IMG/VR virus record: IMGVR_UViG_3300028898_000252
Coordinates: 285,946 to 349,945 of that record
Strand: one strand, 5' to 3'
Length of the DNA: 64,000 nt
Source: a virus
Lineage: Duplodnaviria > Heunggongvirae > Uroviricota > Caudoviricetes
Both the position numbers and the translations under genes were made by a program. The notes under the pieces were generated by a model, which saw only the letters and a list, made by a program, of their open reading frames with translations, was not told where the DNA came from and made no database searches. This document shows, piece by piece, positions 17,115 through 42,433 of the stretch (positions are counted from its first letter, which is position 1; each line of letters begins with the position of its first letter).

Positions 17115-17253
17115 TGGGAGAACGTGGATTAGCACGGTATATGCCAGGAATTACTTCAAAAACCCCCTAAAACCGCCCCCTAGGGGCCTCGTTTTTAACC
17201 CCTTGTTTAAGCCAGGGCCCATTTGCGGGTTGAAACCCCAGGCCCTGTATCCA

Positions 17254-17778
17254 TTATGTGGTTTCGATTTTCTTAAAGTCGTCTCCGAATCGAATGCGCT
17301 CACTTGTAACGCATTCGTCTGAATACTTCGAGAGAATCTTTTCGACGGCATCAATTCGGAGGTTGATTGCCTCGAATGTTTCTGTGTAGCGGTGAACGCG
17401 GATTCTGCGAGCCGTACAGGAATAGTTGTTAATCCCTGAATACTTCAATTCGTTTCTGTAACCAGTCACCGCTACTGGTTTACCAATGGGAGTAAGATGC
17501 TCGACATTTTGCTCGCCGTAACGTTCCCAGAACAAGTTTCGCCAGGAATAGCCTGTGCCGTTATCTCCGCTTCCGTAGAGCAAGTCGACTGCCGACATAA
17601 TGAGGTTGCCGATATCGCTGCTCATATCGTTGCAGTTTTTTGGAATTCGTTTTTCTCTATTCGAGATAGGATAGTCAGCTTCGAACAATGCGTTGTGTTT
17701 CATTGCAATTATATCGAGTGCCAACTCGACGATGGTAGAATCGTCCTCGGGAGTAACCTCCGTGAGTTTGTTTTCCAT
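17254..17778 (-). CDS. Hypothetical protein (island cassette)
   Basis: 174 aa, GGGAG RBS, follows element 17824. Confidence 0.75.
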   Translation of the reverse strand: MENKLTEVTPEDDSTIVELALDIIAMKHNALFEADYPISNREKRIPKNCNDMSSDIGNLIMSAVDLLYGSGDNGTGYSWRNLFWERYGEQNVEHLTPIGKPVAVTGYRNELKYSGINNYSCTARRIRVHRYTETFEAINLRIDAVEKILSKYSDECVTSERIRFGDDFKKIETT

Positions 17779-17865
17779 TTGAAATTGTTTCTCCCTTCTG
17801 TCTATCTCTTAGCACAATCCACGAAGGTTTATTTACCTTGCGAGAAGTATGCCAAGGGAAAGATA

Positions 17866-17900
17866 GAAAAGAAAACGACCCTGAGTGTATCAGGGTGGTT
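17866..17900 (-). terminator. Intrinsic terminator
   Basis: ACCCTGA-TACAC-TCAGGGT then CGTTTTCTTTT. Confidence 0.6.
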
Positions 17901-17928
17901 CTCTCGAAACGATCAAAGCGAGTTTGAT

Positions 17929-18168
17929 TCAGGGTGCCCGCTCGAAAACGGTTTCATCGTTGCGTCGAATTCGGAACTCTGCTGCGCTCAGGTGAGCGAA
18001 AGAACCACCGCGCCCGAATTCGGGGTGGGTTCCGTTGACGAGTTGTTTTGCGTAGCGAGCATCCTGCGCGTCGCGAATGGTTGCAAAATCCAACCATTTG
18101 CCATCGCGCTTGATTTGCGCAACGTCATATTCCTTGAAGGTGTATTCCGCGGGCTGTGTTTTGTGCAT
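17929..18168 (-). CDS. Hypothetical protein (island cassette)
   Basis: 79 aa, GAGG RBS, follows element 18214. Confidence 0.7.
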   Translation of the reverse strand: MHKTQPAEYTFKEYDVAQIKRDGKWLDFATIRDAQDARYAKQLVNGTHPEFGRGGSFAHLSAAEFRIRRNDETVFERAP

Positions 18169-18249
18169 AGTTTGAATTCCTCTCTCTGTGAATATGGTTT
18201 ACCACAATTCTTGGAGGTTTATTTACCTTTCAAGAAGTATGCCAGTCGA

Positions 18250-18684
18250 TCAGTCTTCGCTGATATCCTCCTCTGCCATATCTTTCAGATATGATTCGAA
18301 CGAGGGAGCATTCCAATCACATCCGTATTCGTAGTCGCCTCCGCCCTCGTAATCTTCTCGGTTTTCTCGCCTTTTGATGCGATCGAGACATTCGTTGAGC
18401 GTATACTTGCGAAACGACCTGTTTTTTTCTTCGGAGTAGTTCCGCTCTTCGATTTCCAGCGAACGAAAATCGAGTTCAGACTCTTCGGTTTTGAGCCACA
18501 TTTCTTGCTCGTCTTCGAGGGTTTCGTCGATTCCCTCGGCGATTGCTTGCTTCTCGGTAACACCTTGCGGGTTGCTGAATCGCAAAGTCTTTTCTCTGCG
18601 GCTGTTACCGAGAATGCGGTTAAGGGTAAACCTATCGTCAATATCGAGACGAGCAACAAAACCGCGGCGATGGTTGGTTTTCAT
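18250..18684 (-). CDS. Hypothetical protein starting MKTNHRRGF
   Basis: ATG 18684 with GGAAGG RBS, follows element 18728. Confidence 0.7.
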   Translation of the reverse strand: MKTNHRRGFVARLDIDDRFTLNRILGNSRREKTLRFSNPQGVTEKQAIAEGIDETLEDEQEMWLKTEESELDFRSLEIEERNYSEEKNRSFRKYTLNECLDRIKRRENREDYEGGGDYEYGCDWNAPSFESYLKDMAEEDISED

Positions 18685-18769
18685 TCTGTTGATCCTTCCG
18701 TGGTTATCTCTTACCACGTTTGGCTCTGAATTATTTACCTTGCAGGGACCGTGCCATCGCGGATTCTGA

Positions 18770-18816
18770 AAATAAAAAATGGGCTACTCGGGTGCTGGTT
18801 AGGCACTCGGTAGCCC
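18770..18816 (-). terminator. Intrinsic terminator
   Basis: GGGCTAC-CGAGTGC..GCACCCGA-GTAGCCC then ATTTTTTATTTT. Confidence 0.75.
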
Positions 18817-19003
18817 GTGAGCGGAAACGGAATCTCCGTTTATTTGTGGATTGAAGGGAGCACGTCGCGCGCTCAACCTCGGTTGAAGGGTAGGAAACAA
18901 CAGCAAGAGCGACGAATAGGGTTGCGATTGTTTAGCTCCTCTCTGTGTTTAGGTTTAGCACACCCTTGAAGGAATTATTTTCCTTTCAAGAGATATGCCA
19001 GTG

Positions 19004-19129
19004 TTAGCGGTTGCCGTTTTTGAGGTTGAGGGTTTCGGTTGCCTTTGCGATCATTCCACCAGCGACGAGCGCGGCGAACATCATCACGAAGGCGAAAGCT
19101 GCCCCGTTGGCGAACGTGTTAGCGATCAT
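19004..19129 (-). CDS. 41-aa single-TM peptide (not in ORF track)
   Basis: MIANTFANGAAFAFVMMFAALVAGGMIAKATETLNLKNGNR; AAGGA upstream. Confidence 0.55.
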   Translation of the reverse strand: MIANTFANGAAFAFVMMFAALVAGGMIAKATETLNLKNGNR

Positions 19130-19259
19130 GGGTTTGTGTGGTTTCCTTTCGCTGGCGACGAATCACCGCTGCAACCTCAACGATGCTGTAGGTTGTGCGC
19201 GCGATGGCGAGAATCAACAGAACGATCATAGAGAAATGGTTGTCGATGGAGGGTTCCAT
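19119..19259 (-). CDS. 46-aa hydrophobic peptide (not in ORF track)
   Basis: MEPSIDNHFSMIVLLILAIARTTYSIVEVAAVIRRQRK...; GAGG RBS after element 19300. Confidence 0.6.
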   Translation of the reverse strand: MEPSIDNHFSMIVLLILAIARTTYSIVEVAAVIRRQRKETTQTHDR

Positions 19260-19338
19260 TTGTTTTCCTCTCTGTGAGTATGTCTTAACATACCATTGAA
19301 GGATTTATTTACCTTTCAAGAGGTGTGCCAAGGTTTCG

Positions 19339-19569
19339 TCACTGGTCGGAAGGAAACCAACCCTTCACAACGGCGTTGTGGGCAATTCCAAGACGAAACA
19401 CCTGGGATCGTACTCGAATGCCGCTCGAAGCATTGAACACCTTGATTGAGGCATTCAGGGCGTTTGGGGCGGCATTCAGAGCAGCGGCGAACGCCTCGTG
19501 TTCGGTTGCTCCGAAACCGCTAGCGCTCAGTCCCGTTTGATTACGGGTCCATCGAAATTTACCTTGCAT
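19339..19569 (-). CDS. Hypothetical protein
   Basis: 76 aa; TAATG coupling with upstream ORF. Confidence 0.6.
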   Translation of the reverse strand: MQGKFRWTRNQTGLSASGFGATEHEAFAAALNAAPNALNASIKVFNASSGIRVRSQVFRLGIAHNAVVKGWFPSDQ

Positions 19570-19781
19570 TAGTTCATCACCCTTTCAGGTGCGGTTGAGG
19601 GATCGTGACCGAGGTTGAAAGCGGAGCGAAACAACTGTGCTTGCTCGCGCGTATCCGTGAAATGATCGAACACGGCCCCAGTCACGTCGGAGCGAAAACG
19701 GACCCTCCACATTTCACGCGGCGGGCGTTGGTTGCGAAGAAAAAACGCCTTCAACTTTTCGAGAAGTAACTTGTCGAGCAT
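19569..19781 (-). CDS. Hypothetical protein
   Basis: 70 aa; GGAGG RBS; follows element 19846. Confidence 0.7.
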   Translation of the reverse strand: MLDKLLLEKLKAFFLRNQRPPREMWRVRFRSDVTGAVFDHFTDTREQAQLFRSAFNLGHDPSTAPERVMN

Positions 19782-19928
19782 GACAACCTCCGTTCTGTTT
19801 GACCGTTTCGAATTCCCTTGTGAGTATGTCTTATCACACTCAGTTAAGGTTTATTTACCTTTCACAAACCATGCCAAGCACAGTTTATGAAAACTTTGTT
19901 TTCAAGACCTATGCCAGACTTTTGCCGC

Positions 19929-20312
19929 TCATGCAAACTTGCATGCCGACAAGGTTTTCATCACGGAATACATCCTGTCGATGACCGCGGGGACCTTTTT
20001 GTCGTTGTCGTGGTAAAACATGTTTGCGGCGAGAATAACATTTCTAATCGCCTTGCGCTTGTTCATTCCGACCGCGATATGCACCGCACCGCCACGAATT
20101 GCGATTGAACACCTCCAGCCGTGATCGCGTACGGCATCGAAAACAACATTGACAGGATTGACGCGATTGTTATTCAGCAGGTCGACCAATTTTTCGACCT
20201 TCGCGCCCCCGCTGTAAACCTCGATAACGGCGGCTTCGAGCAAGGTATTGAACCTTTGCTCTCTTGCTTCGATGGCTCGAAAGAATGCCTTGAATGATTC
20301 GAATTGTTCCAT
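19929..20312 (-). CDS. Hypothetical protein
   Basis: Start reassigned to MEQFESF with AAAGGG RBS. Confidence 0.65.
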   Translation of the reverse strand: MEQFESFKAFFRAIEAREQRFNTLLEAAVIEVYSGGAKVEKLVDLLNNNRVNPVNVVFDAVRDHGWRCSIAIRGGAVHIAVGMNKRKAIRNVILAANMFYHDNDKKVPAVIDRMYSVMKTLSACKFA

Positions 20313-20494
20313 TGTGAAACCCTTTCGTTGGAGAATGACAGCCGCAGAAATAGGATTTGCACCTACAGTTTCCTCTGTTTTGCAGAGGTTTTGGCCACGA
20401 TTCGGCACGGGACCTATTCCCGTTCTGCGGTATAGACTTGTTAACACAACCTCGAAGGTTTTATTTACCTTTCAAGAGGTGTGCCAACGAAGGT

Positions 20495-20707
20495 TTAGTC
20501 GTGATACCAAACATCCTCGCCGTGAATGTTTTTCGACGGAAAAACAACCGTATCCGTGTCCTCGTTGTGCTTCGTGACAGCGAACATCACCTTTCGCTGA
20601 GCGTTGCGCAGCACCTTGCGAGCAAAGCGCTTGAAACCATTGTGAAAGTGGCGATGGTGGGAGTCCTCGCTGCGAGCGGTGAATCCTCGACGGTGGTTCG
20701 TTTTCAA
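20495..20707 (-). CDS. Basic peptide starting MKTNHRRGF
   Basis: 70 aa, TTG start, GGGAG RBS, follows element 20750. Confidence 0.65.
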   Translation of the reverse strand: MKTNHRRGFTARSEDSHHRHFHNGFKRFARKVLRNAQRKVMFAVTKHNEDTDTVVFPSKNIHGEDVWYHD

Positions 20708-20844
20708 TTCCGTTCTCCCTTCTGTCTAGGTCTTAACACACTCTATCGTGAATTATTTTCCTTTCACGAATCGTGCCAAGGTTGACCAAGAGGCTGTCTC
20801 GGTGGGTTGAGGCATTCAGAATTAATTTCAAAATCTGTGCCGCG

Positions 20845-20874
20845 AAAATAAAAAAGCCCCGATTCGCTCGGGGC
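20845..20874 (-). terminator. Intrinsic terminator
   Basis: GCCCCGA-GCGAA-TCGGGGC then TTTTTTATTTT. Confidence 0.8.
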
Positions 20875-20912
20875 GTGGCGGGTTTGGTTATGTATCCAAA
20901 CCAATTGGTTTC

Positions 20913-21287
20913 TCAATCCTCGTTTTCCGACGAGAACGCGATCGAACGAATTCCGATCTCATGGTAGTTTTTCCATGAGAATGTCAGCCGCTTCGAATCG
21001 TCATCGCAGCCTTTCAAAACGACGTGCGTGCAATCCCCCGATTGCGTGACGACCGAAGCGACCTCCCACAATTGCGAGCCGTGCGCTCGCTTTCCCTTCA
21101 CTTCGAGAATGTCACCAACCTTGACGCGCGAAAGGATGATCCACACGGGATCGCGTCGCGTTCGGTCCGAAACTTGAAATTTTCGTTCGGTCAAGTCATC
21201 GTAGAGGCGGCGAGCCTTCGTGTTTTCATTCGCCCACGCGCGAAACGAACCGATGATTGCCGAGAGGATATCCTTGTTGTTGCTCAT
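20913..21287 (-). CDS. Hypothetical protein (possible SH3-like C-terminus)
   Basis: 124 aa; VKVGDILEV. Confidence 0.65.
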   Translation of the reverse strand: MSNNKDILSAIIGSFRAWANENTKARRLYDDLTERKFQVSDRTRRDPVWIILSRVKVGDILEVKGKRAHGSQLWEVASVVTQSGDCTHVVLKGCDDDSKRLTFSWKNYHEIGIRSIAFSSENED

Positions 21288-21335
21288 GTTTCTTTTCTCT
21301 TTTCTTTTCGTTGAAGTTGATTGAAGGGTTGGTTT

Positions 21336-21710
21336 TCAGAGAGAGAGGGCGAAAGCGATATCGAGAGCAACAGGGGTTTTGTTTTCCTCCGTTACTCCGT
21401 TGTACTTGATCGCGTGTTCCGCGAGGTTGTAGTGGTCAATCAATTCGACCTCGCAAGGTAGGGGAGTGTTGCAGGCGAGCCGCGTAATCGGAGGCATTTT
21501 TTTGTCTCCGAAAAGTTTTACCAACAAAAACTCTGTTCCGTATTGACCAGTGGAGGCGGAACTTGCGGTCAATTGGTAGACCGCAGAAACCTCTTTGCGG
21601 CCTTTCCGAAATGACAGCAAGAAAAACCTTGCAACCTTGACAAACACCGTAATCGAACAACCGAGTGTTTCGGTGTTGATTCGATCACCAACCTTGAAAA
21701 GATGGTTCAT
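21336..21710 (-). CDS. Hypothetical protein
   Basis: Start reassigned to MNHLFKVGD with AAGGGA RBS. Confidence 0.65.
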   Translation of the reverse strand: MNHLFKVGDRINTETLGCSITVFVKVARFFLLSFRKGRKEVSAVYQLTASSASTGQYGTEFLLVKLFGDKKMPPITRLACNTPLPCEVELIDHYNLAEHAIKYNGVTEENKTPVALDIAFALSL

Positions 21711-21866
21711 TCGTTTTTTCCCTTGTTGCTTGACGAAAACCTTGTCGGCGACTGGCTTATCGACAATAATTTTCTTGGGGTTGCGAGACAGGGTGATTCC
21801 TGGCCAGTTTCTATCTCTTATCACAGCTTTCAGCATTGAATTTTCCTTTCAAGCGCTATGCCAAGA

Positions 21867-22049
21867 TTACCTTTTCCGTTGTTTGATTTTCGAACCAGAG
21901 GGCACCACGAGAAACCATTCGAACCTGTTGACAATTGCATTCCAAACCTTGTATCTCCGAATCACTCTCGTGTAGAGAGCACCTTGACGCAGGGTTTCGA
22001 GGTATGAGTCGAACGGACCCAGGTGGTTTTCTGAATAACAGTCGCCCAT
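21867..22049 (-). CDS. Hypothetical protein
   Basis: 60 aa; AAGGTGA RBS; follows element 22101. Confidence 0.65.
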   Translation of the reverse strand: MGDCYSENHLGPFDSYLETLRQGALYTRVIRRYKVWNAIVNRFEWFLVVPSGSKIKQRKR

Positions 22050-22136
22050 TCGTTCACCTTCCCTTGCTGGCGTGTCTACCTCATATCACGATTGATTCTG
22101 TTTTATTTTCCTTGCAGGGATCATGCCAGCAGTGGA

Positions 22137-22355
22137 CTACTTCGAAACCTCAACTCCAATAATCAAAACCATCGGAGGCTCGCCTACAGAAGTCTCGAAA
22201 CCAGAAACTTTCGTCTGGAAAACTTCATCCTTCTCTGGATTATCCATGAGAGCTTCATTCAGTCGGAGGATCAACCTTTGCGCTTCATCACGCGAAAGGC
22301 CGATAACCAAACGATTTTTGAAAATCTCGTCTGCGGTTTTTTCCCAGTGCGCCAT
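22137..22355 (-). CDS. Hypothetical protein
   Basis: MAHWEK start, AAGGA RBS; follows element 22399. Confidence 0.65.
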   Translation of the reverse strand: MAHWEKTADEIFKNRLVIGLSRDEAQRLILRLNEALMDNPEKDEVFQTKVSGFETSVGEPPMVLIIGVEVSK

Positions 22356-22490
22356 GATCTTTTCCTTTCCGTGGTTATGATCTAACACATTCAGCTCTGA
22401 ATTATTTACCTTGCAGGGATCATGCCAACCACGGGAGATTGAGAATTATTTTCAAATTGCTGCGGCACAAAAAATGCAGGGCCAAAAACG

Positions 22491-22530
22491 ATAAAAGGGC
22501 AACCCGCTTGTTAAAGCGAAGTTGCCCCTT
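22491..22530 (-). terminator. Hairpin/terminator after the tRNA-ncRNA operon
   Basis: GGGCAAC-TTCGCTT..AAGCGG-GTTGCCC then TTTTAT. Confidence 0.65.
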
Positions 22531-22569
22531 TGGGTTTATTTACTTTGCAAACCGTGTGCCAACGTTTAG

Positions 22570-22644
22570 CGTCTCTGATAGGACTTGAACCTATGACCTA
22601 CCGCTTAGAAGGCGGTCGCTACTATCCAACTGAGCTACAGAGAC
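22570..22644 (-). tRNA. tRNA-Arg(UCU)
   Basis: GTCTCTG/CAGAGAC acceptor, TAGCTCAGTTGGATAG D arm, ACCGC-CTTCTAA-GCGGT, GGTTCAAGTCC; CCA not encoded. Confidence 0.92.
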
Positions 22645-22649
22645 AAAGC

Positions 22650-22732
22650 GTCTCGTAACGTTACTGTGCGCCGCTTACACTACGGTTTTGAGGCCGCGGA
22701 GAGTCGAACTCCGTCTGCAACGTTTCCGAGAC
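22650..22732 (-). ncRNA. Circularly permuted tRNA-like RNA (YrlA/Y-RNA-like)
   Basis: Order stem - T arm (CGGAG-TTCGACT-CTCCG) - closed acceptor hairpin - TA - D arm (GTGT-AAGCGGC-GCAC) - stem. Confidence 0.7.
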
Positions 22733-22919
22733 TGAAACAGTCTACAGGAGCACTGTTTCGATGTGCAGTCGATACGCAATCCGTCTCGTAACGTCATCGC
22801 GACGTTGGATTGTCCACTATTGGCAATCAACCTTTCGAGGTTGACTCTCGCTCTCGCCGCGAGAAGGCTAGTGGTGCTGAGAGCATATAATACCGACATA
22901 TCCCCTCGGTTAACGGGTT

Positions 22920-22988
22920 GACTGAGCGGTTTAACTGTTTAACCTAACAGGTTACCCTGTGCAGGATTCGCACCCGCATATCTCAGTC
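22920..22988 (-). ncRNA. Circularly permuted tRNA-like RNA (YrlA/Y-RNA-like)
   Basis: GACTGAG-ATAT-GCGGG TGCGAAT CCTGC-ACAGG GTAA CCTGT-TA-GGTT AAACAGTTA AACC-G-CTCAGTC. Confidence 0.72.
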
Positions 22989-23197
22989 GGTGTGATGGTG
23001 GTTTGTATTGTTTCACTAGCATTCAGTAACCATCGGTACCGAATGCCAGCGGCCACGATTTATTTAACCCAACACCGAGCATTGTGGCTTGTTTGGTATT
23101 GGACCACGGAATTATTCTCCGTGGATTTGCTTTCCTTAAATGGTGGAAAGCACGACAGCGTTTACGACTCCATACTATATGTCGCCTCTAGCATGAA

Positions 23198-23262
23198 TGG
23201 TGCTCTCATATGGACTCGAACCAATGCCTAGCAGCGCGGTTAAGCGCTCTAGGTATGAGAAC
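23198..23262 (-). ncRNA. D-armless tRNA-like RNA with encoded ACCA
   Basis: GTTCTCAT/ATGAGAGC-ACCA, CCTAG-AGCGC-TTAACC-GCGCT-G-CTAGG, TGG-TTCGAGT-CCA. Confidence 0.7.
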
Positions 23263-23387
23263 ATGTTTTATGTTAAGGAATCTATCGTTTTGACGTTGTT
23301 GCCCCGATCGCCTCGCTCTCTCTGTCTACATTCTAGCGCGACCGAGCAAGGTTTATTTACCTTTCAAGTATCGTGCCAGGGAAAAGG

Positions 23388-23516
23388 GTACCGCCGCGGG
23401 AATCGAACCCGCTTTAGACGTTCTAGCCAACGTCTAAATCTCCAAGGTAGAACCCCATAGTTTTATCGGTGCTTGACTAGAGCGCCCGCTATGTTGTCTA
23501 ACTTTAGGTAGCGGTA
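23388..23516 (-). ncRNA. 129-nt tRNA-like RNA (acceptor + T arm + two long hairpins)
   Basis: TACCGCT/GGCGGTA, GCGGG-TTCGATT-CCCGC, TTTAGACGTT/AACGTCTAAA. Confidence 0.65.
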
Positions 23517-23519
23517 TAG

Positions 23520-23602
23520 TGCCAGCAACGGGACTTGAACCCGTATGCCCTTGCGGACGGCGGATTTTGAATCCGCTGCGTATTCCATTCCGCCACGCTG
23601 GC
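23520..23602 (-). tRNA. tRNA-Leu(CAA)
   Basis: GCCAGCG/TGCTGGC-A, GCGGA-TTCAAAA-TCCGC, long variable arm GTCC-GCAA-GGGC, GGTTCAAGTCC. Confidence 0.93.
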
Positions 23603-23949
23603 ATTTGTTCTGCAATCTCGTTTGCAGAGGACGATACCGAGACACATTCTAATATGCGGCTCGATATTAACACGCTGGGATGACACAATGATCATCCGTG
23701 TGGTACAGCTTAGTTTGATATGTGTACCTAGTTCACAGCCCGCGGTTTTCATTGGCTGCAAAACAAGTTGTGCCAGTCACTTAGCCCGTGTTTGCAGGAT
23801 ACGCGCACGCCGACTAGCTTACGCTCGCGTTTCCGACGTATGGGATATATTACCGTTCACTCGCTTTCCTTTTCGTTGCTGCCCGCCCCATGAATCTCTC
23901 TTACCACACCCGAGCAAGGTTTATTTCCCTTGCAAGCGCTATGCCAGGG

Positions 23950-24189
23950 TCAGAGCGCGACCACCGCGAGGGTTTCGCGACCGTTTTCCCACGGGCAGAG
24001 CCACGCTTTCGCGTAGCCGTTGGGTGCTTGCACGATCACGGGATTACGGGGCGACGCCCGTTTCGCGCGGCAAGCGCGGACGATTTTGTCCACCCCAGAA
24101 TCGATAGAATAGTGAGTCACGAATGTAGCTGCCGTTTCGTTGAACTCGAACACCACTGCTTTCGAATCGTTCACTTTTGCATCCTCCAT
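23950..24189 (-). CDS. Hypothetical protein
   Basis: 79 aa between elements 24221 and 23916. Confidence 0.6.
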   Translation of the reverse strand: MEDAKVNDSKAVVFEFNETAATFVTHYSIDSGVDKIVRACRAKRASPRNPVIVQAPNGYAKAWLCPWENGRETLAVVAL

Positions 24190-24254
24190 CCCCCATAATC
24201 TTATGTTAGTACAACCGAGCAGGGTTTATTTACCTTGCACAAGCCATGCCAGAG

Positions 24255-24617
24255 TTAGACCTTGGCGGAATCCTCCGCTCGACGAATAACCCACCATTCG
24301 GTTCCCGCGCCGTCGCGGTCGATTTCACCCACAAGGATGAATTCATTGCTGAGCATATCCATAAACACGCCCTCCCATGCCCCGCGGGTTGTTCGAACGG
24401 ACACACCGAGGATTCTGGAAAACTCAGCCGCAGCCGCAGATTTTCTGACTACGGACGAAAGATTTGTCTTCCGAACGTCGATCTTTCCGCCGCCGCTCAA
24501 TTCGAGCTCGAAACCCTCTTGGGTTTGCTCGATCGCAGTCACGGGAATGAATTCGAGATTCAACCGTTGACGAGCGACGATATTCAAATCGAGACCATCC
24601 GACACAATGCAGTCCAT
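24255..24617 (-). CDS. Hypothetical protein
   Basis: 120 aa, AAGGG RBS, follows element 24669. Confidence 0.7.
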   Translation of the reverse strand: MDCIVSDGLDLNIVARQRLNLEFIPVTAIEQTQEGFELELSGGGKIDVRKTNLSSVVRKSAAAAEFSRILGVSVRTTRGAWEGVFMDMLSNEFILVGEIDRDGAGTEWWVIRRAEDSAKV

Positions 24618-24710
24618 TGTTTGAAACCCTTTCTTCGTTGGTGTGTTCTCTGTATAGCAGACCCTAGCAAGGTTTATTTACCTTGCAATCGGTATGCCAA
24701 GGATGATTAG

Positions 24711-24781
24711 TAGGTCCAGAAGGAATCGAACCTTCGTTAACTGGTTAAAAGCCAGCTACTCTACCATTGAGTTATGGACCC
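24711..24781 (-). tRNA. tRNA-Lys(UUU)
   Basis: GGGTCCA/TGGACCT-A, GCTGG-CTTTTAA-CCAGT, GAAGG-TTCGATT-CCTTC. Confidence 0.93.
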
Positions 24782-25130
24782 TTAGAGCGCCGCTGTTTAC
24801 CAACGATTCCCCGTATGCGGGGCAACCTCGGGACAGCGGGCGGTTTTGCACCATTCTTTTATTCGTTTTAGGCCGAATCACACCCGTTAGGTAGCTATCG
24901 GCCTATCGTTTACGACGATACATCAGCGTTTCCTCTTCGCTATATTATTAGAACCTACGCATGCGCGCGGTAGGCTTATGGGTTCGAGGTAGTGAATGCG
25001 GAATGACCCGCGCCCGTATCGTGTTGGCAGCGTGCGGTTTCGCTCGGTATCCGCTGCTAGTTTTACCGATCGACTAGCAACCGCTCAGTGGAGCGGCTGA
25101 CAAGGTGTGTGTAGCACGACTCGGCAGGGT

Positions 25131-25469
25131 TTATTTACCTTGCACCGTCTGTGCCAGCGGGACGCCGCCCGACCACGGGGCATCGTCGATCATTTCGAAA
25201 ATGGTTTGAATTTCCTCGACTGAAAGAGTGGTGTCGTGATACCACTCCGTCAACCTTCGGTCGAAAGCGTCGGCAAGGTCGCGGGTTTCAGCGAATTCGA
25301 ATTCGACCTCTTCGAACATCGAATTGTAAAACCTCGGAGGTTGCTCGCCATTTGCCGCGCGGTGTTCGATGATCGCCTGCTCGCATTCTCCCACGAATTC
25401 GGCGAGTTGTTCTCGCGAATAACCGCGGAGTTTCAGCGTTTGCAATTCTGAGAGATTCTTCGTCGACAT
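25131..25469 (-). CDS. Hypothetical acidic protein; stop codon supplied by the next element
   Basis: MSTKNL start; ends LAQTVQGK-TAA, the translation of element 25126-25156. Confidence 0.65.
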   Translation of the reverse strand: MSTKNLSELQTLKLRGYSREQLAEFVGECEQAIIEHRAANGEQPPRFYNSMFEEVEFEFAETRDLADAFDRRLTEWYHDTTLSVEEIQTIFEMIDDAPWSGGVPLAQTVQGK

Positions 25470-25546
25470 TTTCTTTCGTTGCTCCTCTCTGTGGGTATGT
25501 CTTACCACACCCTTGAAGGAATTATTTACCTTGCAAGCGGTGTGCC

Positions 25547-25579
25547 AAAAAAAATAGGCTTGGAATAGATCCGAAGCCT
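25547..25579 (-). terminator. Intrinsic terminator
   Basis: AGGCTT..AAGCCT then ATTTTTTTT. Confidence 0.65.
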
Positions 25580-25769
25580 CTCACCATTCGTTATATCGCC
25601 TTCAACCGCAAGTTAACTTAATAACTCGCTGAATGGCCGCACTCCCAGGCATCGCGCTATGGACTAGCCTTATGGTTGCGCTTTGTTATGGCCGCTTGCA
25701 CGGTTTGGTTGAAGCAATGCCGTTATCCAACGGCGGTATTGGCTTGACAGAGAATCCTGTTCTCTGTCA
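25580..25769 (-). ncRNA. Candidate structured ncRNA downstream of tRNA-Ile
   Basis: No minus-strand ORF; long-range pairing TTGCTTCAACC/GGTTGAAGGCGA plus two hairpins. Confidence 0.45.
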
Positions 25770-25846
25770 TGGTAGGCGTAAATGGACTCGAACCATTGAC
25801 CCCACGGTTATAAGCCGTGTGCTCTAACCGACTGAGCTATACGCCC
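25770..25846 (-). tRNA. tRNA-Ile(UAU)
   Basis: GGGCGTA/TACGCCT-ACCA, CACGG-CTTATAA-CCGTG, AATGG-TTCGAGT-CCATT. Confidence 0.9.
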
Positions 25847-26037
25847 AACGAATGCGGCCTCGCCTTATTCAGCGCCCGCGGTGAATGCTAACCAGCTTGT
25901 CACGGCCAGTGCATTATTTTACCTGCTTTCCGTATCGTTGCGGGTTGAGGTTTTGAGGCAACCTTGCTCGTTGCCCCGTGAGTATGTCTTAGCACGACTC
26001 GGCAGGGTTTATTTGCCTTGCACCGTTCGTGCCAGGG

Positions 26038-26346
26038 TTACGCCAGCTTCGACCACGCCAGCGCGAACAAACGCACGGCGAAAGCCAGGGCGAAAACCGC
26101 AGCGCTCACCCTTGCAATCCCCAGCGCGTTTTTTGACGTTCCGTAACCGTACTCGGACGCAAGAAAACTGTTTGTCAGCCTCTCAGCGATCATGGAAACC
26201 ACGAAAAGCGATCCAAACAACAACAGGTGTTGTCCTGCGGAGAGCGAGAGAAACATCCCGAAAAACGTTCCGATCGCGCCCGAAGCGATGGCGAGCACAA
26301 GCAACACAGCCGCCGCGACTGCGGCGAAAACCTTACCAAAGGTCAA
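26038..26346 (-). CDS. Small multi-pass membrane protein
   Basis: About 3 hydrophobic segments; TTG start just after the upstream stop (start uncertain). Confidence 0.6.
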   Translation of the reverse strand: MTFGKVFAAVAAAVLLVLAIASGAIGTFFGMFLSLSAGQHLLLFGSLFVVSMIAERLTNSFLASEYGYGTSKNALGIARVSAAVFALAFAVRLFALAWSKLA

Positions 26347-26348
26347 GG

Positions 26349-26729
26349 TTACGACCTTCGCGAGTGTGACGCGCGCTGGAGAATCGGAAGACCAAGAACA
26401 CCACTCGGTCCAACCTTTGCAAACGCATCGGTTTGCTCGTTGCCGCGTTCGCCAGGGACGAAAAGCGTCACCTCGGCATAGCGGTTGCTGTGCCCCGCGC
26501 AGCACTTGGTTTCACTCGAAACCGTTGCGCGCCAGTCAGAAGCGGAAAAAAACTTTTCCGTTTCCTTTCCCGCAGCGTCGTGTCGGATCACTTCGACCGC
26601 GTAGCGCTCCAATTGGAGCCGTTCGCGGAGTTCATCGGCGTGCATTTCCGCCGCTGTGCGTGTGTCGAGCTCCATTCCTTCATCGAAGGAAACATCGCCA
26701 CTGTCTGAACCATTCACTTCGATCGTCAT
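26349..26729 (-). CDS. Hypothetical protein
   Basis: 126 aa, GGAGGT RBS, follows element 26797. Confidence 0.7.
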   Translation of the reverse strand: MTIEVNGSDSGDVSFDEGMELDTRTAAEMHADELRERLQLERYAVEVIRHDAAGKETEKFFSASDWRATVSSETKCCAGHSNRYAEVTLFVPGERGNEQTDAFAKVGPSGVLGLPILQRASHSRRS

Positions 26730-26831
26730 TGCCTACCTCCATGTAGGGTTGCTAGAGGTTATCTCCAGCAACAACTTTTGAATAACACAACCCTCGAAGG
26801 TTTATTTACCTTGCAGGGATCATGCCATTCT

Positions 26832-26892
26832 TGGAGGGCTTGGGAGAATCAAACTCCCCGCAAAGTTTTTGCTTTGCGAACCATTAAGCCCT
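26832..26892 (-). ncRNA. Minimal tRNA-like RNA (acceptor + T arm + one hairpin, TCCA end)
   Basis: GGGCTT/AAGCCC-TCCA, GGGAG-TTTGATT-CTCCC, GCAAAG-CAAAAA-CTTTGC. Confidence 0.55.
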
Positions 26893-26897
26893 TGCGG

Positions 26898-27380
26898 TCA
26901 CTCCGCTAGTGCCGCCTGAATCTCGGAAAGTTTCTTCTCGAAGGTGAAACGAGTTTCGAAACGCTCGCACACTTCGCGCAATTCCTCGAAACCACTCGCG
27001 ATTTGTTCGAGCGAATCGGGGTCAACCTCGTTGGGCGCGGTGCGGTCGACCAGCTTCGCATACTCGGTCAACTCGATTCCGAATTGAGCGCCGCGCCAAT
27101 CTCCGTTAGCGTCGCGGTAGTTGAGCACACGCTTTTCGAGCGCGTACATGATCGCGCCGTCCACATCACCCGCCTTTTGCGCGGTGCGCAGCTCGACCAG
27201 CTTCCGATACGACGCGCGCAGGTTTTCCACACCCGCGACGATCATATCAAACTTCTCGTCGACATTCGCGTTTCGAAACGCCGCCAAGTTTTCGAGCGGC
27301 TTGTGCTTGCACGCGTCGAACGAGCGCGTGGCTTCGAGAAGAGCCGCCTTATCTGCAACAACAACAACGTTCGTTCCCAT
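26898..27380 (-). CDS. Hypothetical helical protein
   Basis: MGTNVV start; GC3-rich codons; follows element 27467. Confidence 0.7.
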   Translation of the reverse strand: MGTNVVVVADKAALLEATRSFDACKHKPLENLAAFRNANVDEKFDMIVAGVENLRASYRKLVELRTAQKAGDVDGAIMYALEKRVLNYRDANGDWRGAQFGIELTEYAKLVDRTAPNEVDPDSLEQIASGFEELREVCERFETRFTFEKKLSEIQAALAE

Positions 27381-27612
27381 TTTTTTCTTTTGCTCCAATG
27401 TTTGAAAAACCGTTCACTTGCTGTGTGAGCACCGTTGCTCACACTCTCTACTTAGCACAACTCGACAAGGTTTATTTACCTTGCAGGGTTCATGCCAAGC
27501 GTGGCACTTCCGCCGAGGGTTGCACTCGGCATAGCTATTGCTTGTTAGCTTTAGCTATCGTGTCCTGGTGACACCGAAAGTGTTTTGTTCTGCCCCTTTC
27601 GGGGCGAGGGTT

Positions 27613-28236
27613 TCAACCCTCGGCGGTTTCGTCGTCGGTCGCAGCGTCGAGCGCTTCGAGCGCGGGCGAATTGCTCAGGTCGGTTGCAGCCGCGCCAGCA
27701 AACCGCGACGGAGGCGCGGAAAGCGCGACGACACGCGCCGTGCGCGCAGGCTTCGCGGGCTTGGGAGCCTCGGGAGCCTTGGGTTTGATTCCGAGCATCG
27801 CAGCGACCGAGGTTTGCGGCGCGTTGGGATTGATTCGCGCGATTCCCGCGCACTCCATTGCAGCGCGGAAGGTTTCGATCAGTGACAGCGCCTCGATCGC
27901 GCAACCCGCGCTATCGCGCGAGTGGAGCACGAAAACGTTGTCGCGACCGATGACCTCACTGCCGTACACGACCTCGCCGCGAACGATGCGAAGCAACAGC
28001 GTCGAGCCCGCCGTGTCCGAGTTTGGCCCGCCGCGCGCGGCGCGCACGCCTTCGAGCAGCGCGAGCGCCGAGCCGCCTTCGTCATCGGTCAAGCGGAACA
28101 TCACGGGCTCTTGTGGCTCGATCCACAGATCAGACTTCGACGCGTCGCCGCCCTCGCCGCACTGCTCGCGAACGTGCGCAACGAGCGCCGCGAGAACCAT
28201 TCCAGCGACAACCGAACGAACAGAATTCTTGCTCAT
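27613..28236 (-). CDS. Hypothetical protein with A/P-rich disordered C-terminus
   Basis: MSKNSV start; follows element 28332. Confidence 0.7.
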   Translation of the reverse strand: MSKNSVRSVVAGMVLAALVAHVREQCGEGGDASKSDLWIEPQEPVMFRLTDDEGGSALALLEGVRAARGGPNSDTAGSTLLLRIVRGEVVYGSEVIGRDNVFVLHSRDSAGCAIEALSLIETFRAAMECAGIARINPNAPQTSVAAMLGIKPKAPEAPKPAKPARTARVVALSAPPSRFAGAAATDLSNSPALEALDAATDDETAEG

Positions 28237-28331
28237 GTTTTTTTCTCTCTTTTCTTTCGTTTTGTGAACTCGCGAGCACCGCAACCGTGCGGTGCATCAT
28301 CTCTTGTGAATCTCTCTTAGCACGACTCGGC

Positions 28332-28362
28332 AAGGTTTATTTACCTTGCACCGTCTGTGCCA
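28332..28362 (-). promoter_or_regulatory. Representative sigma54-type -24/-12 promoter
   Basis: TGGCACAGACGGTGCAAGGTAAATAAACCTT; GG-N10-GC; upstream of the ORF starting at 28236. Confidence 0.75.
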
Positions 28363-28532
28363 ACCTAACAACCATCGAAACTCACGTTCGCAGGTTAGGT
28401 GGGATGGTACGAATGTTGTTTGTTCGTGCCGTCCCGTCTACTCTGCAACCGATACCCTGTCATGTGCTCTGTCTAGCACACTCTCGGAAGGTTTATTTAC
28501 CTTTCAAGTATCGTGCCAGGACAGTTTCAGGC

Positions 28533-29054
28533 TCAGTCGTCATCGGCAGCATCGAAAAACTTGCCGATCGCGAGGAATTCACCGCGAGTGCAAGCGGCGT
28601 GCCACTCAGGATTCGAGCCCGTCCCGTTTGGAATCGGGCTGAAATTCAATTTCTGTACCATCGTGCGGCGTGCTTTGAATTCGGCGAATCCTGGGAATTC
28701 AACCGAAGCAAGCACCGCGCCGTTGTTTTTCGACCAGTCGTAAAAGTACCGTTGTTTTCCGACGGCACCGTCGTCGGCCAGTGGGGCAACAACGAGACAG
28801 CTTGTTCCTCGCGCCCCGCGTGAGGAATGATTCCCCAGCAAAATGAATCGCCGCTTGTTGATTCGCACAGTTGAATACTTTGGCGCTGCTTTTGCAGCAA
28901 GCACCGTATCCCGCTGAAACTCGCTGAATTCATCGTAGTCAGGCGAATCCCGCTTGATTCGCCCCTGGCGAGCACCTTCGCCTGCGGTACAGTCAAGGTC
29001 GAGCCTTTCAGGCTCGACAACATTGTCATTGTCATTGTCGTTTTCGTTTGCCAC
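28533..29054 (-). CDS. Hypothetical protein
   Basis: GTG start with GAGGAG RBS; NDNDND microrepeat; follows element 29098. Confidence 0.7.
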   Translation of the reverse strand: MANENDNDNDNVVEPERLDLDCTAGEGARQGRIKRDSPDYDEFSEFQRDTVLAAKAAPKYSTVRINKRRFILLGNHSSRGARGTSCLVVAPLADDGAVGKQRYFYDWSKNNGAVLASVEFPGFAEFKARRTMVQKLNFSPIPNGTGSNPEWHAACTRGEFLAIGKFFDAADDD

Positions 29055-29296
29055 TCGCTGTGCTCCTCTCTGTGAATCTCTCTTAGCACGACCGACCAAG
29101 GTTTATTTACCTTGCAGGGTTTGTGCCAACAACCTTGGTCGTTGGAGTTTCGAGCGAAACGCGGCGATCGTCCGTCCCGCCCTGTGTTCTCTGTCTAGCA
29201 CAACCCAAGGTGCTTTATTTACCTTGCAAGCATCATACCAGGGTTGGGCGTTTGGCGCGGTGCGAGCCTCTATCGACCGCGCGTACACGCGTGCGT

Positions 29297-29370
29297 AGCA
29301 TAAACCATGCCAGGTAAGACTACCTAAAAAAACCGTTGGCATGATACTTGCAAGTGGCATGGTTTATGCC
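29297..29370. promoter_or_regulatory. Divergent cluster of three GG-N10-GC boxes at the right island edge
   Basis: Minus 29297-29312; plus 29337-29352 and 29355-29370; perfect 15-bp inverted repeat 29298-29312/29355-29369. Confidence 0.75.
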
Positions 29371-29485
29371 TTCGCGGGGCAACCCTCAACCGTTACCATA
29401 TATGGCAGTATGAAACACCTAAACATTTAGTGAAATGAAATTTAATGAAACTAGGTATGAATTTTATTTGTACTAAGGTTTAGAG

Positions 29486-29959
29486 TTAAACTTTGTATTT
29501 TATAAAAAGAGTTTCGAGTTTTGTTTTAAGTTCTGGATAATGATAAAGGAAACTTTTATTCTTTTTTGGATCAAGGAGTCTTTCGTAAATTTGTTTGTAT
29601 GAGTTTCTCTCAAGCCACGAGAGATAAGCTGAAATAAACTTATCATCTTCGAGATAGTCAAACAAAGTGACTTCAACCATTTCAAAAAATGTTTCTTTGT
29701 CGAGTTTAATTGTTTTGGAGCATATTAGAGCATAATATGCACAAAGTTTTTTGATAAGAAACTCATCATTTTCAAAATCAAGAACTTGTGGTTTTTGGGC
29801 TTTGGGAGAGGAAGTATTCCAGTTTTGGGAAACAATTATTGTCGATTGTGATTCATGTGCGGTAATTGTGTTATAAGAAGGGTCAAACAAAATGGCACGG
29901 TAATCACAACCTGTAAATGTTTTAACAAAGGTTTTGAGTTCTTTGTTTTCAAGTTTCAT
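29486..29959 (-). CDS. Hypothetical protein
   Basis: MKLENK start with AAGGAGG RBS. Confidence 0.75.
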   Translation of the reverse strand: MKLENKELKTFVKTFTGCDYRAILFDPSYNTITAHESQSTIIVSQNWNTSSPKAQKPQVLDFENDEFLIKKLCAYYALICSKTIKLDKETFFEMVEVTLFDYLEDDKFISAYLSWLERNSYKQIYERLLDPKKNKSFLYHYPELKTKLETLFIKYKV

Positions 29960-30121
29960 TGTTTTGTTGCCTCCTTTTTTTGATTGTTTTGTTTCAACCC
30001 AAACTCTTATTGTTTTGGGTTGATTTATCTTAGCCGCAAACCTTATAAAAGGTTTGGGATTTAAGCTTTGAATTAATATGATAAACATTTAGTATTTTGA
30101 CCCTCCCCTCCCCTTAAAAGA

Positions 30122-31300
30122 TTAATTCTTTTTAGAGTTAAGCTGCGAAAGGTTTTCTTCAAGGGCTTGGTCAATAACTTGCAAAGTATCTCTAAACTGT
30201 TGAGTAAAACTATCAGTAAGGGCTTTGAATTCTTTCTTGAGATTCACATTATCGTTTTCGGCGGAATACCATTCGATTCTGAATCTATCAATAACTTCTG
30301 AATACTGGGAAAGGAATTCAAGTCCTTCGCAGATTGATTTATCAAACACTTCAATTGGATAGTTTCTCAGGTCGAGGCCGTTTGCCTTGAACAAGTTTTC
30401 GTAGGCAAACTTTGCAAGAAACTTTCCAATGAAGCCGAATTGATCTGTAACCTCTTCTTCGTTGTTTATTTCAATAGAAGGAATATAAACAGTCCATTTA
30501 TCAAGTGGAGAAATAAGAGTTTTGTTATCGTCTCTTGCCGATGATCCTGCGTCGGCGAATCGCATAATAACAAATGGTCCATATTGACCATCCCCAGAAT
30601 AAACTTGATAACCAACCATTCCTTTCGGAAAAGGATTCTTTCCTCGCTTTGCCGCGACAGAATAGTTGATTCCAAGGTTCATGTTTCGATAATCAGACCT
30701 TCTTTTCGATTCTTTCCATTCTGCCTTTTTAATATTGTTTTCAATTTCGATTTGCTGAAGGTGTTTGTTGTACAGATTCATAATCTCTTCATCGGCATCA
30801 ACTTCAACAAAAAGACCATCCTTTTTAAAGGATTTTCCTTTGTAGAAAACAGGAGGCAAATAAACATTACTTGTTTGAATGTGTTCAGCTGCAAACTTTT
30901 TTTCTTCTTTAAGATAGTAGGTGATAACAAGACTGTCATTATTCAAACCATCATAGTAATATGAATTCATTTCAACATTCACAATTGGATTTGATGGGTC
31001 GATAATATATTTCTCTGTGACTGAAATCCAGCCATATTTGTTGACGATTGGTTCTTGTGCCTGAAACATTTCAAGATACTTTTTTTGGATTGCCTCGAAT
31101 TCTTCTTTCTCGTGCAAGTAATACACAGGGGAATTTGAACATGTTTCATAGTTTTTCAATTCCTCTTCGGTCATTTCGTTTCTGCGGCGAACTCTCTTTT
31201 CGACAAGTTCGCTGTAATTCAGTTTTTTTCTCAATTCCTCGTGAGCTTTGTATGCAGGGTTTTCATCCGTTCGGAACACACTCAACGACTTTGCGACCAT
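30122..31300 (-). CDS. Hypothetical protein under the outlying element 31407
   Basis: 392 aa, GGGAG RBS. Confidence 0.8.
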   Translation of the reverse strand: MVAKSLSVFRTDENPAYKAHEELRKKLNYSELVEKRVRRRNEMTEEELKNYETCSNSPVYYLHEKEEFEAIQKKYLEMFQAQEPIVNKYGWISVTEKYIIDPSNPIVNVEMNSYYYDGLNNDSLVITYYLKEEKKFAAEHIQTSNVYLPPVFYKGKSFKKDGLFVEVDADEEIMNLYNKHLQQIEIENNIKKAEWKESKRRSDYRNMNLGINYSVAAKRGKNPFPKGMVGYQVYSGDGQYGPFVIMRFADAGSSARDDNKTLISPLDKWTVYIPSIEINNEEEVTDQFGFIGKFLAKFAYENLFKANGLDLRNYPIEVFDKSICEGLEFLSQYSEVIDRFRIEWYSAENDNVNLKKEFKALTDSFTQQFRDTLQVIDQALEENLSQLNSKKN

Positions 31301-31572
31301 GTTTTTATTTCTCCCGAGTGAATTGGTTTTTGTTGCCCCGATTATCGCTGCGGTGAGCCTCTATCACTCGCGCGATCACGAGCACACGCATAGCACAATC
31401 CCCCGCGGATTATTTACCTTGCAACGACCGTGCCAGCTACCGAGGGCAAGAGGATTCGACCCCGCAAAGTTTGCAGGTTTCGCGAGCCTTTCAGTGTAAC
31501 GGTTACCCGAAACAAACGATCAAACAAGAAAAACAAAAGTGTAATGAAATTAAATCATATTAATTTCAATAG

Positions 31573-35947: not shown

Positions 35948-36379
35948 TCACCAAAAAAACAACGTTTTGGATTTGTCTAATATTGAAATGTAGCGTGTAA
36001 CAGGTGATTTAGAGCGACCAGGTTCTTTTAAATTGAATTTTGTGGTTACAAAGTCTGGTTTAATTTGATAATCATATTCTTCATATTCAAAGTCATTTTT
36101 TGAATTTGGTTCAAGCGAACCGAGTTTTATTTCGGTAATTTTATCTGTGGAACCAAGAAGTATCATTTTAATATTTGTGTCAGGATCGGGTTCACAATGT
36201 CCATTGCTGAAATAAATCATTTTTGCTGTGTTGTCGCGCGGAATGCTCCATCCAGTATTTGTTTTTGGATTATACTCTTTTTCGGGATGTTTAAGAATCC
36301 AATTTATAAAATCTTGTCTTGTATTAAACTCCCTAACAAAATCAACAACATCTTCGTCTGTTTTGATGAACTTATTCAT
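35948..36379 (-). CDS. Stand-alone copy of the EYNxxTxTGW domain
   Basis: DFINWILKHPEKEYNPKTNTGW. Confidence 0.7.
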   Translation of the reverse strand: MNKFIKTDEDVVDFVREFNTRQDFINWILKHPEKEYNPKTNTGWSIPRDNTAKMIYFSNGHCEPDPDTNIKMILLGSTDKITEIKLGSLEPNSKNDFEYEEYDYQIKPDFVTTKFNLKEPGRSKSPVTRYISILDKSKTLFFW

Positions 36380-37437: not shown

Positions 37438-37443
37438 ATTACC

Positions 37444-37472
37444 GTGATAAGCCCCGCGAGCGGGGCTGTCAA
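37444..37472 (-). promoter_or_regulatory. sigma70-like promoter with palindromic spacer; probable leaderless mnmA mRNA
   Basis: TTGACA-GCCCCGCTCGCGGGGCT-TATCAC-6 nt-ATG. Confidence 0.7.
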
Positions 37473-37490
37473 CGACAAGAGTCAAATATT

Positions 37491-42292: not shown

Positions 42293-42433
42293 ACATTTAT
42301 TCCTTGAAACCAAGGTGCCATTATCAAAAGATAAAACAGAAACCAACAAGTAAATACCAGCCAAACATAGTTGTAAACACTCTCGCAAACTTTATCAAAC
42401 AGCGAATAGGTTTCGAGTTCTTTCATGGCGGTT

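Follow-up and report, generated by a model that had tools for sequence, protein, structure and literature searches.

The 64,000-nt stretch of viral DNA analyzed here (the window; positions 285946-349945 of the IMG/VR record IMGVR_UViG_3300028898_000252) contains an island in which 26 gene or RNA units each begin with a copy of a repeated element, hereafter called the head. The head joins a box resembling the -24/-12 promoter of sigma54 (RpoN) to a sequence able to fold into a hairpin, and whole units are skipped, replaced, or moved between strains at the heads. We regard the repeat as real and functional, and we hold with good confidence that it is a cassette head of the kind known as promoter-early stem-loops (PeSLs), combining a signal that restarts its unit, a hairpin, and a handle for recombination. 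The heads may well be composite promoter and stem-loop modules of this kind, heading mobile gene and RNA cassettes in a hyperplastic island of a T4-like jumbo phage; we advance this overall explanation tentatively.

Scanning with the pattern TGGCAY-N6-TGMAAGGWAAATAA and allowing up to two mismatches gave 26 matches, 20 of them exact, all on the minus strand between 17829 and 31435; shuffled sequences are expected to give 0.01. A shorter core of the motif gave 37 matches against 3.8 expected. A first-pass annotation, made from the sequence of the window, had reported 26 co-oriented minus-strand copies with exact GG-N10-G(C/A) spacing. Both statements held, since the ungapped alignment contains no insertion or deletion (indel) in any copy, and spacings shifted by one base (N5 or N7) had no match within the island. 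The motif had also been described as absent from the rest of the window, and this proved true of the entire genome (390,884 bp), in which it is restricted to the island; the sole match elsewhere is a weak hit with one mismatch at window position 42302. The start coordinate given for the array, 17130, does mark the end of the island, but the sequence there is a truncated copy (TGGCAT-N5-GTGCTA) that comprises the outer stem only. Likewise, the element described in that annotation was the 5' half of the head; the 3' box, the hairpin, an inverted copy, the shuffling of the cassettes, and the parallel to PeSLs had been overlooked.

The full element spans about 45 nt and consists of TGGCAYR-N4-NTGMAAGG, a loop, and a fixed GTGNTA box. 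Among the 62 distinct copies collected from this phage and its relatives, which were also used for the hairpin statistics below, the second box (YGTGNTA) occupies element positions 39-45, 24-25 nt past the -12 position. The 5' half agrees with at least 10 of the 12 positions of the sigma54 consensus (consensus and site list in PMC3844500) in all 26 heads, with invariant spacing, and is kept in diverged relatives, which confirms the -24/-12 likeness seen at first pass. The likeness extends to the flanking positions: -27 is Y in 24 of the 26 heads, -20 is always R, and A is found at -11.

The loop of the predicted hairpin is enclosed by two stems, one formed by TGGCAY with RTGNTA and the other by GMAAGG with CCTTKC. 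Both stems form in 56 of the 62 copies, and the sense strand is the more stable one in 52 (mean -17.0 kcal/mol, compared to -12.2 kcal/mol for the antisense strand) because of G·U pairs. The proportion of cells paired in this structure is 78%, compared to 25-45% when the partner is slid. An arm-swap test was weakly positive, cognate arms pairing slightly better than swapped ones (p = 0.013 in the window and p = 0.026 in the related contig L065).

The heads are also the points at which the island changes between genomes. Whole units are missing, replaced, or relocated in contigs from other strains, and each joint connects equivalent positions of two heads (19830>20441, 24206>24655, 25986>29081, and 18233>18996). 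These joints lie where the homology ends, at element positions of about 51-55. No tyrosine recombinase (Phage_integrase domain) is encoded by this phage or its relative, and no recombinase domain was detected in the ORFs (open reading frames) adjoining the array. The simplest mechanism is therefore homologous exchange between heads. Two more diverged relatives, L065 and L067, carry heads in the same sense orientation. Contig L065 was reached through homologs of the 207-aa island ORF and is syntenic with the window at 75-80% identity; three units are missing from it, extra units have been gained, and one piece has been translocated. The identity of the island proteins to those of the window is 54% in L065 and 42% in L067. 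In both relatives the heads keep TGGCAY-N5-NTGMAAGG and GTGNTA, and the loop block varies across the relatives from TAAATAA to TTGATAA and CTAAACC. That the sigma54-like half is kept while the AT-rich loop changes argues against taking the AT block for a sigma70 -10 box or a T4-late box. A search for further relatives using the sigma factor of the phage as the query found none. Separately from the heads, a 133-nt stretch just upstream of tRNA-Arg (22648-22782) is skipped in contigs from four of four runs, comprising RNA-library and DNA runs. The joint shares 13 letters on either side, and the skip is a common indel polymorphism between short direct repeats.

The placement of the heads agrees with the first-pass description: they begin 3-15 nt after stop codons or after intrinsic terminators, at least five of them following good intrinsic terminators. 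All 26 are co-oriented with the downstream ORFs or tRNAs. In 13 units, a start codon led by a Shine-Dalgarno sequence (GAGAGGAG-type ribosome site) is located 71-82 nt downstream from the T of TGGCA. Genes for tRNAs (Arg-tct, Leu-caa, Lys-ttt, and Ile-tat) are found in four units, and several units lack an ORF. No Pfam family was found for any of the island ORFs. The features of the island are as follows.

17130-31435, minus strand: GC-rich (49-57%) hyperplastic island of 26 cassettes (ORFan genes, tRNAs, and ORF-less units).
31391-31435, minus strand: head 1 (TGGCAC..GTGCTA), then two AT-rich ORFs, 31300-30122 (392 aa) and about 29958-29486.
29337-29355, plus strand: single inverted copy of the sigma54-like box, directed back toward the 3' end of the two-gene AT-rich unit.
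29196-29240, minus strand: head 2 (TGGTAT variant), heading an ORF-less unit of 112 nt.
29084-29128, minus strand: head 3, then an ORF of about 173-188 aa (to 28533).
28474-28518, minus strand: head 4, a 156-nt unit without an ORF.
28318-28362, minus strand: head 5, then the 207-aa ORF (28236-27613) whose homologs led to L065 and L067.
27453-27497, minus strand: head 6, then a 160-aa ORF (27380-26898).
26783-26827, minus strand: head 7, then a 126-aa ORF and a hydrophobic ORF (26729-26038).
25990-26034, minus strand: head 8, then non-coding RNA sequence and tRNA-Ile(tat) at 25846-25770.
25503-25547, minus strand: head 9, then a 112-aa ORF.
25112-25156, minus strand: head 10, then an ORF-less stretch and tRNA-Lys(ttt) at 24781-24710.
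24655-24699, minus strand: head 11, then a 120-aa ORF; unit missing in L065.
24207-24251, minus strand: head 12, then a 74-79-aa ORF; unit missing in L065.
23902-23946, minus strand: head 13, then an ORF-less stretch and tRNA-Leu(caa) at 23602-23519.
23334-23378, minus strand: head 14, then about 700 nt with no convincing ORF, followed by tRNA-Arg(tct) at 22644-22569.
22517-22561, minus strand: head 15 (GCAAAG variant), leading directly into a terminator hairpin; 134-nt unit.
22383-22427, minus strand: head 16, then a 72-aa ORF; unit missing in L065.
22084-22128, minus strand: head 17, then a 60-aa ORF.
21819-21863, minus strand: head 18 (loop AAAATTC), then ORFs of 166 and 124 aa, then a terminator.
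20856-20874, minus strand: intrinsic terminator (7-bp GC stem and T-run), 78 nt before head 19.
20734-20778, minus strand: head 19, then a 70-aa ORF.
20442-20486, minus strand: head 20, then an ORF of about 127-172 aa.
19832-19876, minus strand: head 21, then ORFs of 70 and 76 aa; immediately upstream, at 19898-19916, there is a degenerate partial copy.
19286-19330, minus strand: head 22, then two tiny hydrophobic ORFs (46 and 41 aa).
18956-19000, minus strand: head 23, a 244-nt unit without an ORF.
18712-18756, minus strand: head 24, then a 144-aa ORF.
18200-18244, minus strand: head 25, then a 79-aa ORF and a terminator (17896-17878).
17810-17854, minus strand: head 26 (TCGCAAGG variant), then a 174-aa ORF.
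17130-17146, minus strand: truncated terminal copy, outer stem only, kept at the same place in L067.

The unit of head 15 can be regarded as empty, because the head leads directly into a terminator hairpin. The inverted copy at 29337-29355 sits in a 15-bp perfect inverted repeat whose partner region is 29294-29312. Other small features recur in the spacers. The post-terminator spacers at 20790-20845 and 22430-22470 (minus strand) have a short motif in common (TTTGAAAWTAATTCTSAAT) directly before the next head, and a weaker form of it precedes head 24. Directly before several heads (at 31436-31470, 26835-26880, and 23380-23425) there are tRNA-like 3' halves with T arms of the GGTTCGAWTCC type and acceptor-like ends, which look as though they punctuate the units; the full tRNAs called by Rfam and ARAGORN number four.

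The island also differs from its surroundings in composition. The GC content of the genome is 30-35% except in a single block, 17.8-29.4 kb of the window, where it is 49-57%. The GC content at third codon positions is 0.61 in the island ORFs (17254-29099) and 0.26 in the neighboring phage genes (31573-62389). Certain codons are avoided in the island compared to elsewhere: AGA makes up 0.10 versus 0.47 of the arginine codons, and the corresponding values are 0.03 versus 0.23 for ATA and 0.45 versus 0.82 for AAA. The island tRNAs decode AGA, AUA, AAA, and UUG. This split in codon usage fits an island that is translated with the tRNA pool of the host and supplies tRNAs for the AT-rich remainder of the genome.

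The virus record is a complete genome with direct terminal repeats, and the entire window is phage DNA. A Gp23 major capsid match (E = 3e-59) together with tail sheath domains assigns the phage to the T4-type myoviruses. Its source samples are bioreactor, wastewater, and activated-sludge metagenomes, and the isolates nearest in the capsid are Flavobacterium phage immuto (41% identity), Microcystis phage Mel-JY01, and Rhodothermus phage RM378. The hosts of these isolates (Flavobacterium, Microcystis, and Rhodothermus) and the sludge and wastewater habitat lend no support to the Myxococcota host that had been guessed at first pass.

Next to the island, on the minus strand at 31573-35823, lies the gene for a 1416-aa protein without a Pfam or PDB match. 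It contains about six copies of a repeat of about 150 aa (..YP.V.TL.KFKEFIK.NG.EY..KTKTGW..), followed at residues 1120-1250 by MORN-like repeats (DGPA.EW.DG.K.WY.EGK.HR), and the MORN-like part is the sole region common to related jumbo phages. Also on the minus strand, 36376-37485 encodes an MnmA-type tRNA 2-thiouridylase (tRNA_Me_trans, E = 1.5e-63), and 51191-52288 encodes an RNA ligase (E = 3.7e-19). These two enzymes, taken with the tRNAs, point to a heavy outlay by the phage on the maintenance or repair of tRNA.

On these grounds, we propose the following way of working for the head. The head would restart transcription of its own unit through its -24/-12 promoter half (YTGGCAYR-N4-NTGMA), and its most likely reader would be the host RNA polymerase with sigma54. 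Transcription would be expected to start about 12 nt after the GC or GA, either within the loop or immediately past it, and the transcripts would then share a constant leader of about 45-50 nt with the GAGAGGAG-type ribosome site at its end. In read-through RNA from the upstream unit, the head would fold into a hairpin of about 18 pairs, G·U pairs included, that may attenuate, punctuate, or stabilize the transcript. The repeat of 45-55 nt would at the same time be the homology at which general recombination could delete, swap, or move cassettes. The GC-rich, host-like codons of the island and its tRNAs for the AT-rich rest raise the possibility that the island is expressed first, on host resources. 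The first-pass annotation had suggested an early host-takeover module, which the island may be.

The host polymerase enters this proposal because the phage appears to have none of its own. No T7-like or multisubunit RNA polymerase domain was found in the phage, so that the polymerase of the host must be used. Nor is there a counterpart to the polymerase that goes with N4-type hairpin promoters: no ORF exceeds 1416 aa, and the large ORFs encode sheath or repeat proteins. The 1416-aa neighbor was considered as a polymerase and rejected as a repeat/MORN-like protein with no PDB match. The phage carries one gene of the sigma70 family. Contigs from RNA libraries in Logan that end at heads were considered as evidence of transcription start sites and were rejected, as DNA contigs end there too (for example at 28491), which indicates assembly breakage at the repeats rather than transcript ends. 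Bacteroidetes-type promoters (TTTG or TAnnTTTG) and the T4-late motif TATAAATA were not enriched upstream of the other phage genes, where a k-mer enrichment returned only AT words resembling ribosome sites. Readings of the head as a sigmaF/G, sigma28, sigma32, or sigmaH promoter or as a MotA box were rejected by eye on the basis of the spacing.

A second phage shows the same box in a different arrangement. This sister phage, G001 (IMGVR_UViG_3300015050_001523), is a 322-kb T4-like phage that was reached through the 1416-aa neighbor protein. It belongs to the same clade, shares the repeat protein domain and the Gp23 capsid, has a GC-elevated island of its own with the same tRNA set (Arg-tct, Ile-tat, and Lys-ttt), and carries about 30 copies of TGGCAT-N5-WTGCAT with the same spacing. 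They differ from the copies in the window in that they occur on both strands and are followed by the palindrome TTATTAATTAATAA. In the G001 units at 136.7-139.7 kb, the order in the gene sense is a strong terminator, TTATTAATTAATAA, a backward sigma54-like box, a GCGCC-AAA-GGCGC hairpin, and CATAAAATAAATC, the last of which sits about 40-60 nt before the start. ATGCCA-18-TAAAAT, whose spacer contains the hairpin, may serve these units as a sense promoter of the sigma70 type; a sigma70 scan of the G001 units gave no enrichment over shuffles.

Several observations weigh against the proposal made above and against its sigma54 component in particular. As the first-pass annotation had stated for the window, and as holds for the whole phage, no sigma54 gene and no gene for a bacterial enhancer-binding protein is found: domain and motif searches detected no Sigma54_DBD domain, RpoN box, Sigma54_activat domain, or GAFTGA motif. 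The alignment columns upstream of the heads contain no conserved enhancer-like sequence, and the heads are packed tightly behind the preceding stop codons. Nine of the 26 copies have GA rather than GC at -12; genuine Salmonella sigma54 sites include GA and GT at this position (PMC3844500). Known PeSL promoters match the sigma70 consensus, whereas the heads match the sigma54 -24/-12 consensus instead. Column-wise covariation in the hairpin was not significant relative to column shuffles, and RNAalifold gave no consensus fold of the heads, so that the hairpin rests mainly on conserved sequence; it is real as a property of the consensus, and covariation does not prove it. In G001, the box mostly lies backwards at the terminator of the previous gene or between convergent genes, and its spacer doubles as the T-run of a GC hairpin terminator. 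A box facing away from the genes that it precedes is not what a simple promoter reading predicts, and the inverted copy at 29337 in the window has the layout prevailing in G001. Taking these points together, we regard the sigma54 reading of the heads as possible but somewhat short of probable. A more far-reaching version, in which the host sigma54 holoenzyme (E-sigma54) initiates at the heads without a phage activator or enhancer, making this a first phage module of ORFans and tRNAs on sigma54, is in our judgment more doubtful. Activation could then come from a host activator in solution (for example of the PspF type, switched on by infection stress) or from a factor delivered with the virion, or melting might be assisted by the hairpin, since the promoter lies in a stem that could be extruded and opening has to occur at the loop of this stem. 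Under sigma54 initiation, the backward copies in G001 might be antisense or shut-off promoters of the same class.

The evidence on placement and orientation would serve equally for promoters read by another factor, either a host polymerase redirected by an unrecognized phage specificity factor or the sigma70-family protein of the phage acting on a short-spaced bipartite site. Both phages encode sigma70-family proteins, the phage is without the activator that sigma54 would need, and the box is specific to the clade, being absent from more distant T4-like relatives. Against this, known sigma70-family factors read boxes that are 16-18 bp apart and not 4-5 bp, a phage sigma factor would be expected to have its motif before other phage genes as well, yet the motif is confined to the island, and the match to sigma54 reaches into the flanks (Y at -27, R at -20, and W at -11), which is difficult to attribute to chance. 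We therefore consider a reader other than sigma54 fairly unlikely. Ordinary sigma70-type early promoters, as in the classical PeSLs, with YTGGCA as the -35 box, a 16-bp spacer, and AATAAW as the -10 box, are a far poorer fit. T4-type phages normally use the sigma70 of the host for their early genes (PMC2839356), and a sigma70 scan does find TTGGCA-16-AATAAT, its sole match type, with 9-10 of 12 matches at six heads. The critical last T of the -10 box is, however, A in 20 of the 26 copies, the block becomes TTGATAA or CTAAACC in L065 and L067 while the rest of the head is kept, and the invariant TGMAAGG would fall in the spacer, which is normally free to vary, making this reading very improbable.

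The layout in G001, with its roughly 30 copies placed backward or between convergent genes at a fixed distance from an AT palindrome and terminators, suggests instead a protein-binding site that works in either orientation, such as an operator, an insulator, or a decoy or roadblock for closed complexes of E-sigma54, and not the start of a unit. Such a site would account for the G001 layout no less well than a promoter class used in sense or antisense. The inverted copy at 29337 and the lack of a visible activator or enhancer agree with it, and closed complexes of E-sigma54 are stable and silent without an activator (PMC3844500). The strict orientation and start-codon distance in this phage (26 of 26 co-oriented), L065, and L067 are difficult to reconcile with it. 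Moreover, a unit that follows an internal terminator requires a promoter, for which no conserved sequence other than the head is available; no candidate binding protein was identified. We judge this explanation unlikely. The terminators before at least five heads, which imply new initiation, tell equally against the idea that the heads act mainly as RNA, namely as hairpins between the cistrons of long read-through transcripts, which would be cut by an RNase III-like or phage nuclease or would stabilize and punctuate the messages and set the tRNAs free, comparable to the T7 early operon, with the sigma54 likeness being incidental to the stem sequence. The greater stability of the sense-strand hairpin, the slight superiority of cognate arms, and the tRNA-like 3' ends before several heads are in its favor. 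On the other hand, an invariant primary sequence of 25 nt is not required at sites of the RNase III type, the columns show no significant covariation, and it is one arm rather than the pairing that is most conserved across the relatives, which leaves a mainly RNA-level role distinctly unlikely. Finally, an array of small co-oriented cassettes that all carry an imperfect hairpin repeat and that turn over between strains recalls the recombination sites of an integron-like cassette system. We find site-specific recombination of this kind the most improbable of all, because neither phage has a tyrosine recombinase, the ORFs adjacent to the array have no recombinase domain, attC sites have a variable center and RYYYAAC/GTTRRRY ends whereas the center of the head is its most conserved part, and the joints coincide with the limits of homology, which is what homologous exchange would produce.

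No such array is present in the more distant T4-like relatives (LR756508, Flavobacterium phage immuto, and Microcystis phage Mel-JY01). A scan of viral contigs with the full pattern gave three single matches, judged to be due to chance. Most single matches in the metagenome scan proved to encode the C-terminal end (..PMWDMASAMQGK stop) of a single conserved protein from a pilin-type gene cluster and were set aside as irrelevant; the true strain relatives there were eight short contigs. The bacterial genome scan gave 28 single-copy matches, some of which resemble genuine sigma54 promoters of Firmicutes or Bacteroidota, and revealed no array, no CRISPR (clustered regularly interspaced short palindromic repeat) spacer, and no clue to the host. 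Sites identical to the head through the AT block occur singly in intergenic regions of Bacillus, Paenibacillus (three genomes), Pseudogracilibacillus, Desulfosporosinus, and Mucilaginibacter, 20-180 nt upstream of ORFs, and they are probably genuine sigma54 promoters. Literature searches returned no description of such arrays in phages.

To our knowledge, the early and accessory modules described for phages use sigma70-type or phage-specific promoters. If sigma54 does read the heads, they would give a virus a new route into the transcription of its host, and the more than 60 natural variants of a compact, enhancer-less -24/-12 element would be useful for studies of promoter opening. Whichever factor reads them, the heads suggest that the PeSL principle, in which portable promoter-hairpin units insulate genes and serve as a recombination handle for swapping ORFans, is also at work in jumbo phages of 300-400 kb from wastewater. 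The split in codon usage tied to the island further suggests a staged program of expression that can be tested.

Besides the modules of G001, three known systems bear comparison with the array. The early genes of T7 are separated by RNase III processing hairpins, which are contained in a single transcript free of terminators and show no extended invariant primary sequence. The heads resemble them as long, imperfect sense-strand hairpins before nearly every cistron of a co-oriented array of early type, and differ in that several heads are preceded by terminators. Bacterial sigma54 promoters are exemplified by glnAp2 and pspA. The heads share with them the consensus YTGGCAYR-N4-TTGCW, the exact GG-N10-GC spacing, an AT-rich stretch at the expected site of melting, and a co-oriented upstream position; the absence of an enhancer and activator, the packed units, the GA at -12 in about one third of the copies, the location of the box in a hairpin, and the viral setting distinguish the heads from them. 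The closest known system is the PeSLs of T4-type phages (Arbiol et al. 2010, PMC2839356; Comeau et al. 2014, PMC4122927), in view of the turnover of cassettes at the heads, the G-T stem-loop overlapping the promoter, the ORFans, and the T4-type phage. PeSLs consist of a promoter and a stem-loop with G-T pairs, lie upstream of ORFans in hyperplastic regions, and mediate indels; their promoter and terminator activities and the formation of mini-circles were demonstrated (PMC2839356, PMC4122927). In the present phage, too, a short intergenic motif occurs in tens of copies in a hyperplastic region directly 5' of ORFans, the promoter boxes are overlapped by a stem-loop containing G-T pairs, and gains, losses, and replacements of genes between related genomes take place at the motif. 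Apart from the class of promoter, the array differs from PeSLs in being strictly co-oriented, in heading tRNA and ORF-less units as well, and in lying in a block that is about 20 percentage points richer in GC than the rest of the genome.

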